DNA from: Promethearchaeota archaeon
GTDB taxonomy: Archaea > Asgardarchaeota > Odinarchaeia > Odinarchaeales > JBHLKK01
Reading direction: 5' to 3'
Length of the DNA stretch: 14,707 nt
Assembly (NCBI GenBank): GCA_048939465.1
Contig: JBHLPL010000044.1
Coordinates: forward strand, 1 to 14,707
Part shown: piece by piece, positions 4,200 through 7,351 of the stretch
Position numbering within the stretch: the first letter of the stretch is position 1
Layout of the letters: every line of letters begins with the position of its first letter
Made by a program: the position numbers and the translations under genes
Notes under the pieces: generated by a model
What the model was told of the DNA's origin: nothing
What the model saw: the letters and a program-made list of their open reading frames with translations, nothing else
The model's database searches: none

Positions 4200-4365
4200 G
4201 CGAGGGTACCCAAGCTAGGTCAAAGGGGCGGGTACAGTTGATATAACTGTCGCTAAACTTAAGATCCCGTAGCGTAGAAAGCTACTAGATATCCTAGGCT
4301 TGTGAAAGCTTTCGAGGGTTCGAATTGATAGGTTTCTCATCACGAAAATCCCTCCCCTCGCACCA
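4200..4365 (+). tRNA. trnL-TAA: tRNA-Leu(TAA) with three introns: 30/31 (4233-4256), variable arm (4278-4307), 59/60 (4325-4348)
   Basis: Acceptor GCGAGGG/CCCTCGC-A-CCA. Removing 24+30+24 nt gives an 88-nt tRNA with CGGGA-CTTAAGA-TCCCG, variable arm AGC-GTAG-GCT and GAGGG-TTCGAAT-CCCTC. BHB helices GGCG/CGCT and TTCG/CGAA are clean; the variable-arm helix is relaxed. Confidence 0.88.
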
Positions 4366-4454
4366 CTTCTGGCCTTTTTCTAGAGAAAGATTATTCTAGC
4401 ACAAAATTTCTTATTTGTATGCCACTCATCTGTTTTCATCTGAGGGATCCAACC

Positions 4455-5588
4455 ATGTCCGGATATAAGGTAACTCCCTGGGAAGTTGAAGGAGTAGTCG
4501 ATTATGATAAGCTTACTGAAGAGTTTGGAACACAGAAAATCGACCAAGACTTGCTTCAAAGAATAAGCAAGCTTACGGGCGAAGTTCACTTATACCTTAG
4601 AAGAGGATTCTTCTTTTCTCATAGAGATCTAGACAAGGCGTTGGACGCTTACGAGTCTGGGAGTGGATTCTTCCTGTACACAGGGCGAGGTCCCACTGGC
4701 GATATGCATCTCGGTCACCTAATTCCCTTTCTATTCTGCAAATGGCTTCAAGACAAATTCCAAGCAAACCTGTACGTACAGATAACAGATGATGAAAAAT
4801 TCCTTCATAAGAAACCCCTATCTTTGCGTAGGACCCGGAAGTATTCCTATGAAAACATTTTAGACATAATTGCCTGTGGTCTTAATCCCGACAAGACTTT
4901 CATTTTTCAAGACAGTGAGTATACAAATATCTACCCTCTTGCCACAAAAATCGCAAAACGGATAACCTTTTCTACTGCCAAGGCAGTGTTCGGTTTTACG
5001 AGTCAGACTAATATTGGTATGATCTTCTTTCCAGCAATTCAAGCTGTACCATGTTTCCTTGAAAAGAAACAATGTCTAATTCCTGCTGCCATTGATCAAG
5101 ATCCTTATTGGCGAATACAAAGAGATGTGGCGCCAAAGCTTGGTTATAAGAAAACTGCTGCAATACATAGTAAATTCGTGCCCAGTCTAGAAGGTCCAAA
5201 GGGTAAGATGAGTGCCAGTAAGAAAGAGACCGCAATCTATCTGACTGATACGCCCAAAGATGTGAGAATGAAAATACAAAAACATGCTTTCACTGGAGGT
5301 CAGCCTACTGTAAAGGAACAAAAGGAAAAAGGAGGAAATCCGGACATATGTACTGTCCAACAATGGCTTTCGATATTCATAGAACCTGATGATGAGGCCG
5401 TAAAAGAACAGTATATACGCTGCAAACAAGGGACGCTTCTCTGTGGAGAACACAAGGAACTACTCGCAGAGAAGCTAAGTGCTTTTCTGAATGGACACCA
5501 AAGGCGACGGGAGGACGCCAGAGAATTGGTTGAGACGTTTAAGCATGAAGGAAAATTGGCTCAGACGATGTGGGTCAAGAAGTGGTAG
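4455..5588 (+). CDS. trpS: tryptophanyl-tRNA synthetase (archaeal/eukaryal type)
   Basis: VTPWEVEG, LYTGRGP, HLGH (HIGH), ITDDEKFL, CLIPAAIDQDPYWR, KMSAS (KMSKS), HAFTGGQ. Start at ATG 4455; the ORF track gives 4419. Confidence 0.97.
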   Translation: MSGYKVTPWEVEGVVDYDKLTEEFGTQKIDQDLLQRISKLTGEVHLYLRRGFFFSHRDLDKALDAYESGSGFFLYTGRGPTGDMHLGHLIPFLFCKWLQDKFQANLYVQITDDEKFLHKKPLSLRRTRKYSYENILDIIACGLNPDKTFIFQDSEYTNIYPLATKIAKRITFSTAKAVFGFTSQTNIGMIFFPAIQAVPCFLEKKQCLIPAAIDQDPYWRIQRDVAPKLGYKKTAAIHSKFVPSLEGPKGKMSASKKETAIYLTDTPKDVRMKIQKHAFTGGQPTVKEQKEKGGNPDICTVQQWLSIFIEPDDEAVKEQYIRCKQGTLLCGEHKELLAEKLSAFLNGHQRRREDARELVETFKHEGKLAQTMWVKKW

Positions 5589-7219: not shown

Positions 7220-7351
7220 GCCCCGGTGGCTTAGCCCGGTAGAGCAGCGGACTTGTAGGTCACGTTAGGCTTGGCTAAGAAATCCGCCGATTAGTGGTAA
7301 TTTACCATCATTAAGCGGAAGTCAAGGGTTCAAATCCCTTCCGGGGCTCCA
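7220..7351 (+). tRNA. trnT-TGT: tRNA-Thr(TGT) with two introns: 37/38 (7258-7281) and 45/46 (7290-7320)
   Basis: GCCCCGG/CCGGGGC-T-CCA. Anticodon arm GCGGA-CTTGTA|A-TCCGC. BHB helices CTTG/TAAG and CCGC/GCGG. Mature length 77 nt. Confidence 0.92.

Follow-up and report, generated by a model that had tools for sequence, protein, structure and literature searches.

How can a tRNA gene that is interrupted three times, once at the very tip of its variable arm, give rise to a leucine tRNA that its synthetase still recognises? This question is raised by the gene at positions 4200-4365 of the window, i.e. the whole stretch of 14,707 nucleotides that was analysed. The host, an Asgard archaeon, belongs to the same order as Odinarchaeum and to a sister family, and its DNA is best represented in mangrove and sediment metagenomes; RNA runs carrying this DNA did not occur among the public-run matches listed. 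The original prediction of a tRNA-Leu(TAA) with introns at 30/31, in the variable loop and at 59/60 was borne out, the spliced product being 88 nt long. The gene is organised as follows:

4200-4232, plus strand: exon 1, tRNA positions 1-30, which form the 5' strand of the acceptor stem, the D arm and the 5' side of the anticodon stem as far as G30
4233-4256, plus strand: intron 1, 24 nt, at 30/31, with a full bulge-helix-bulge motif
4257-4277, plus strand: exon 2, positions 31-47d, with anticodon UAA at 4260-4262 and the LeuRS identity bases A47c and G47d at 4276-4277
4271-4273 paired with 4281-4283, plus strand: second decoy stem near intron 2 (prediction only)
4278-4307, plus strand: intron 2, 30 nt, at 47d/47e in the variable loop; relaxed HBh' motif, its central helix degenerate
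4296-4311, plus strand: competing GNRA-loop hairpin over the 3' splice site of intron 2 (prediction only)
4308-4324, plus strand: exon 3, positions 47e-59
4325-4348, plus strand: intron 3 at position 59/60, 24 nt, perfect bulge-helix-bulge motif
4349-4365, plus strand: exon 4, positions 60-76, with discriminator A73 at 4362 and encoded CCA

With all three introns removed, the remaining 88-nt cloverleaf with its CCA is identified by ARAGORN as Leu(taa). When the variable-loop insert is kept in the sequence the program calls no tRNA, and the unspliced gene (4200-4365) goes undetected by both ARAGORN and Rfam. All features of a tRNA-Leu are present, namely A73 (A4362), a long variable arm with A47c/G47d (A4276/G4277) and the UAA anticodon. 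A split or permuted tRNA is ruled out, as the four exons are collinear inside 166 bases. An assembly artefact could also be excluded, since the same letters are found in contigs from public DNA runs, one of which spans the whole gene.

Introns 1 and 3 occupy positions that are listed among the known archaeal intron sites (PMC4090602), and both show the strict motif, with four central pairs and a helix beside them. At 30/31 the central helix is complete (4/4, one G-U), as is the intron helix (4/4), and the exon helix has three pairs; at 59/60 all three helices are perfect. The orthologue of the 30/31 intron measures 23 nt in four Odinarchaeum genomes and carries compensatory stem changes. Odinarchaeum Leu(UAA) lacks the 59/60 intron. 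A few other 59/60 introns of the host genome score z 3-4, but nothing about a donor can be concluded from them because the site itself imposes the shared tail.

Intron 2 follows directly on the variable-arm AGC-GTAG, which corresponds to 47d/47e in archaeal LeuRS numbering. The strict motif is not formed here. The central helix GCGT/GTGA pairs as U-G, G-U, C-G and G.A, hence 3/4 pairs, two of them G-U; the intron helix AAGC/GCTT is fully Watson-Crick (4/4), and an outer helix is absent. This agrees with a relaxed motif, defined by at least three central pairs in a register that is conserved among homologues. Two further elements of the original prediction, the weakness of this motif (GCGT/GTGA with two G-U and one G-A) and a competing hairpin at 4296-4311 across the 4307/4308 junction, were likewise confirmed, the hairpin having a predicted pairing of 0.37-0.76 at 37 C. 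The splice-ready fold is predicted to lie 8-10.5 kcal/mol above the ensemble (6.6-9.6 with the strain substitution A4305T, which turns the G.A mismatch into G-U), and its predicted pairing probability is near zero, compared with about 0.98 for the Odinarchaeum orthologues. Fold prediction is a weak guide, however, because many short introns with clean helices also score near zero. Several other cuts in the variable region were considered and rejected. Excision of 19 nt (4285-4303) would leave an unusual arm of 21 nt, excision of 31 nt (4284-4314) would abolish the T stem, and for 27-nt excisions inside the GAAAGCT repeat no helix is available. The idea of a second intron nested within intron 2 was rejected as well, since the inner bulge measures 2 nt in this gene and 1 nt in its relatives.

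The placement of intron 2 is best judged by comparison. In the host genome 5/5 Leu genes carry an insert after the same variable-arm loop, and Leu inserts at 47d/47e also occur in both same-genus genomes, in four Odinarchaeum genomes and in four further Asgard families, so that Leu genes of six Asgard families have introns at this site. The pattern used for the Asgard-wide search was strict, and the counts obtained with it are too low. Among 43 distinct Asgard Leu genes with an insert at 47d/47e, the four central pairs form in 33; when the register is shifted by 1-3 nt, they form in none (0/43). The intron strand of the helix tracks the exon strand (GCGT/GCGC, CCGT/GCGG, GTGC/GCAC, CTGT/GCAG), and this intron-exon covariation yields 50 pairs against 42.3 +/- 2.0 on reassignment, a value reached in 0/20000 shuffles, although kin are not independent. 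The four Odinarchaeum orthologues use the same 47d/47e junction with a complete central helix (4/4). Moreover, the predicted spliced arm with its four-base loop is seen in 17/17 intron-free Asgard Leu genes; three loci (L203, L204 and L208) were pattern artefacts with intron-free arms and were recoded as such. In one Asgard genus Leu(UAA) occurs both with a 31-nt intron of the long family described below (L164) and without it (L231, L235), the flanks being the same.

The site is also used outside the Asgard archaea. Within Thermoproteota, 13 of 251 sampled genomes have a 47d/47e intron, many of them in one Caldarchaeales family. The full helices in 21/21 of these introns lend no independent support because the search pattern required a helix-like tail. 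Their stem is mostly CCC/GGG, which is able to slip to the strict motif (20/21). Over the comparison as a whole three candidates were discarded, L286 because it is not a tRNA, and L242 and L244 as chance matches.

The comparison brought up some peculiar arrangements. In Odinarchaeum Leu(GAG) (L177, L180, L183, L184) the intron lies within the variable stem, at 46/47, and 47d/47e is unoccupied, in contrast to the remaining Leu genes of the order. Odinarchaeum Leu(UAG) (1375-1515 in both L186 and L187, minus strand) apparently contains four introns, of which two interrupt the variable arm, at 46/47 and at 47d/47e; the 47d/47e motif can form only once the 46/47 intron is gone, and its helix seems out of register. 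Two Thermoproteota Leu(UAA) genes (L273, L275, about 1500-1560) have a 34-nt 47d/47e insert that holds the helix strand GCGG twice, resembling tandem introns. The shortest intron seen at the site is an 11-nt one with a perfect central helix in a Leu(CAA) gene of Asgard family f7 (L191, minus strand). A tRNA-Ser(GGA) gene of the same family (L200, from 1501) has a seeming insert in its variable-arm loop; the three Ser genes seen in the host genome show no insert there. An intron of about 257 nt in the anticodon loop of Atabeyarchaeia-2 Leu(UAG) (L218, minus strand) is already contained in a published table. The window itself has other interrupted tRNA genes, for Arg CCU (497-601), Pro UGG (2157-2250) and Thr UGU (7220-7348), two of them interrupted in the variable region. 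On the same strand, a TrpRS gene (4419-5588) starts 53-89 bases past the tRNA, and the two genes are not adjacent in Odinarchaeum. A sigma-70 promoter scan was set aside as inapplicable to archaea.

Against this background the alternatives to a cut at 47d/47e can be weighed. A one-pair shift (A4276-U4301) creates an equally stable motif that leads to another product: if the excised intron were 4279-4306 (28 nt), shifted by one register, the tRNA would be 90 nt long, with GUAGAA as a six-base loop and A47c/G47d still on the 5' exon. This register has a complete central helix (4/4) and four pairs in the intron helix; it tops the viable junctions in a blind scan of the gene, and its energy equals that of the main register. 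It is contradicted by the four-base loop of all intron-free Asgard Leu arms (17/17) and by the orthologues, which use 47d/47e instead; we regard it as very unlikely. Alternatively, intron 2 might often or always be retained. Since the first bases of this intron are a repeat of the beginning of exon 3, the precursor would fold a decoy arm, 4271-4273 pairing with 4281-4283, on which A47c/G47d are still displayed, and the 118-nt form could be charged or kept in reserve. The decoy stem is indeed predicted in the precursor (0.75-0.94), and the GNRA hairpin masks the 3' splice site. The decoy, however, can form in this gene only and in no other member of the family, the hairpin is weakened in the strain variant A4305T, no intron-free relative has such an arm, and a further 30 bases at the elbow of the tRNA would probably interfere with translation. 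Retention thus appears very improbable too, if anything slightly more so than the shifted register.

We give the least credence to a decaying pseudogene with a second intron that can no longer be spliced. Two of the four central-helix bases are unlike those of the orthologues and the assembly is incomplete, yet the exons are nearly identical to those of Odinarchaeum Leu(UAA), from which they differ in 4/85 positions. A related strain contig has six listed substitutions and two deletions in the introns and none listed in the exons (19/23 substitutions being listed). No second Leu(UAA) gene was found in the host genome, which is 91% complete, so that a further copy is possible, and UUA accounts for about 13% of its Leu codons. 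As the sole Leu(UAA) gene found, with UUA in use and listed strain changes confined to introns, the gene is, judging from sequence, under selection.

We therefore return to splicing at 47d/47e and consider it very probable that this is a functional tRNA-Leu(UAA) gene, the three bulge-helix-bulge-type motifs of which would be cut by an (alpha-beta)2 EndA of relaxed specificity and the ends joined by RtcB. Both a putative broad-specificity EndA, with its two subunits on contigs C90 and C139, and RtcB are encoded by the host. The predicted EndA alpha subunit keeps Y125/H133/K164, R157/W183 and the loop lysine K44 of the A. pernix enzyme, in which the loop lysine is the basis of broad specificity; the beta subunit lacks the broad-specificity loop and the catalytic His. 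Asgard archaea with this EndA type have been described by Kaneta et al. (PMC5829648). As to RtcB, the reading frame (L239; host contig C31, 2961-5708, minus strand) comprises 973 aa, in which some 450 residues, probably an intein, interrupt the match to the family, and a second RtcB homologue is located on contig C78.

Introns 1 and 3, with their strict motifs, would form their splice sites independently. Cleavage of intron 2 after G47d and before G47e would generate the AGC-GUAG-GCU arm with three pairs and A47c/G47d at its tip. Since the loop of this arm has four bases, its mature stem provides no outer helix unless it slips, which CCC/GGG can and AGC/GCU cannot; with the stem unusable, a broad-specificity enzyme would be needed for intron 2. 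Because the three motifs involve separate bases, no splicing order is forced, but the decayed central helix suggests that removal of intron 2 is probably a slow, final step. This step would matter for aminoacylation. The original prediction had emphasised the variable arm for archaeal LeuRS, and rightly so: A47c/G47d are documented as its main identity bases (PMC4005665). The site lies directly behind them, and charging should thus depend on splicing, presumably waiting for intron 2 to be removed. Archaeal LeuRS reads A47c/G47d with its C-terminal domain. In the host LeuRS, the gene of which is cut by a contig end, the equivalents of Asp845/Ile849 are kept, and in the same-genus genome G001 the Pro962/Ile964/Ile966 equivalents are kept and that of Glu967 is not. 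We infer transcription, cutting, its order and charging from sequence comparison.

Intron 2 is not like its counterparts in the Odinarchaeum orthologues and is a member of a family of 30-32-nt introns that comprises those of Leu(UAA) and Leu(GAG) in the host genus and those of Leu genes in Freyarchaeia-type genomes; judged by intron sizes and spacing, the second family holding such long introns appears to be Freyarchaeia. An incomplete central helix is found in 10/12 members of the long family, which represent two lineages and not 12 independent cases, versus 0/31 of the other Asgard 47d/47e introns. The introns of Leu(UAA) and Leu(GAG) in the host genome match in 22/32 alignment columns, and those of host and Freyarchaeia-type Leu(GAG) in 25/31. 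In the part of the genome's introns that was compared, similar copies occur only in Leu genes at 47d/47e, which falls short of what defines a translocatable intron: with all copies in Leu genes at one site, isoacceptor conversion or shared descent explains the likeness as well as transposition does. Kinship with the variable-region intron of Arg(CCU) (545-574) is unsupported (z 1.2, 76/500 shuffles as high). The conserved inner hairpin may be a splicing aid or the mark of a recent transfer. One could imagine that the long introns constitute a conserved Odinarchaeales/Freyarchaeia-type family freed from the four-base-pair helix rule, in which the inner hairpin, or a helper binding it, lets EndA cut an otherwise invisible site, a slow or regulated step gating LeuRS recognition of several leucine tRNAs. 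We consider this unlikely, but apart from the family of degenerate long introns nothing in the finding could hide something new.

In the context of known systems, the assumption that three-intron tRNAs are rare did not stand. Three-intron Leu genes were tabulated by Valentin-Alvarado et al. 2024 (PMC11291895, Supplementary Data 4), and according to a preprint by Goswami et al. 2026 (bioRxiv 10.64898/2026.10.13.758758) multi-intron tRNAs are the rule in several Asgard families, and genes with three or more introns, up to five, are common in Asgard archaea. Like the gene studied here, these genes have several short BHB introns at non-canonical sites. The supposed novelty of the variable-arm site did not hold either. 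The second intron of Atabeyarchaeia-2 Leu(CAG) (638243-638275) in the published table maps exactly to 47d/47e, and the tabulated 31-nt introns of Freyarchaeia Leu(TAG) and Leu(GAG) fit it by coordinate arithmetic (PMC11291895). In the part of the literature that the search covered, the site was nowhere found to be named or discussed in words; neither the text of PMC11291895 nor that of the preprint names 47d/47e or draws a link to LeuRS identity. [quoted passage not shown] The 47d/47e introns, from strict to badly decayed motifs, offer a natural substrate series for gauging how much relaxation this enzyme cuts. They also matter for annotation, as tRNA scanners miss the gene or misread its variable arm.

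Non-canonical introns of TACK archaea and Thermoproteales (PMC4090602, PMC4033280) are comparable in that up to three occur per gene, together with an (alpha-beta)2 EndA that has a specific loop, but 47d/47e is missing from the review's example list of positions (PMC4090602). The V-arm intron of Caldiarchaeum was rejected as a precedent, as the one placed by number in PMC3082918 and PMC3293823 is at 45/46 in a class I tRNA-Thr. The translocatable introns known from Thermoproteales (Fujishima et al. 2010, summarised in PMC4390854 and PMC4090602) likewise show similar introns in different tRNA genes, and none was known in class II tRNAs according to a 2015 review. The position 47d/47e is thus a well-supported and apparently unnamed addition to the archaeal tRNA intron map, recurrent in Asgard and TACK archaea, and the three-intron tRNA-Leu adds one more case to a known kind, with an intron at a site that is common among archaeal Leu genes.
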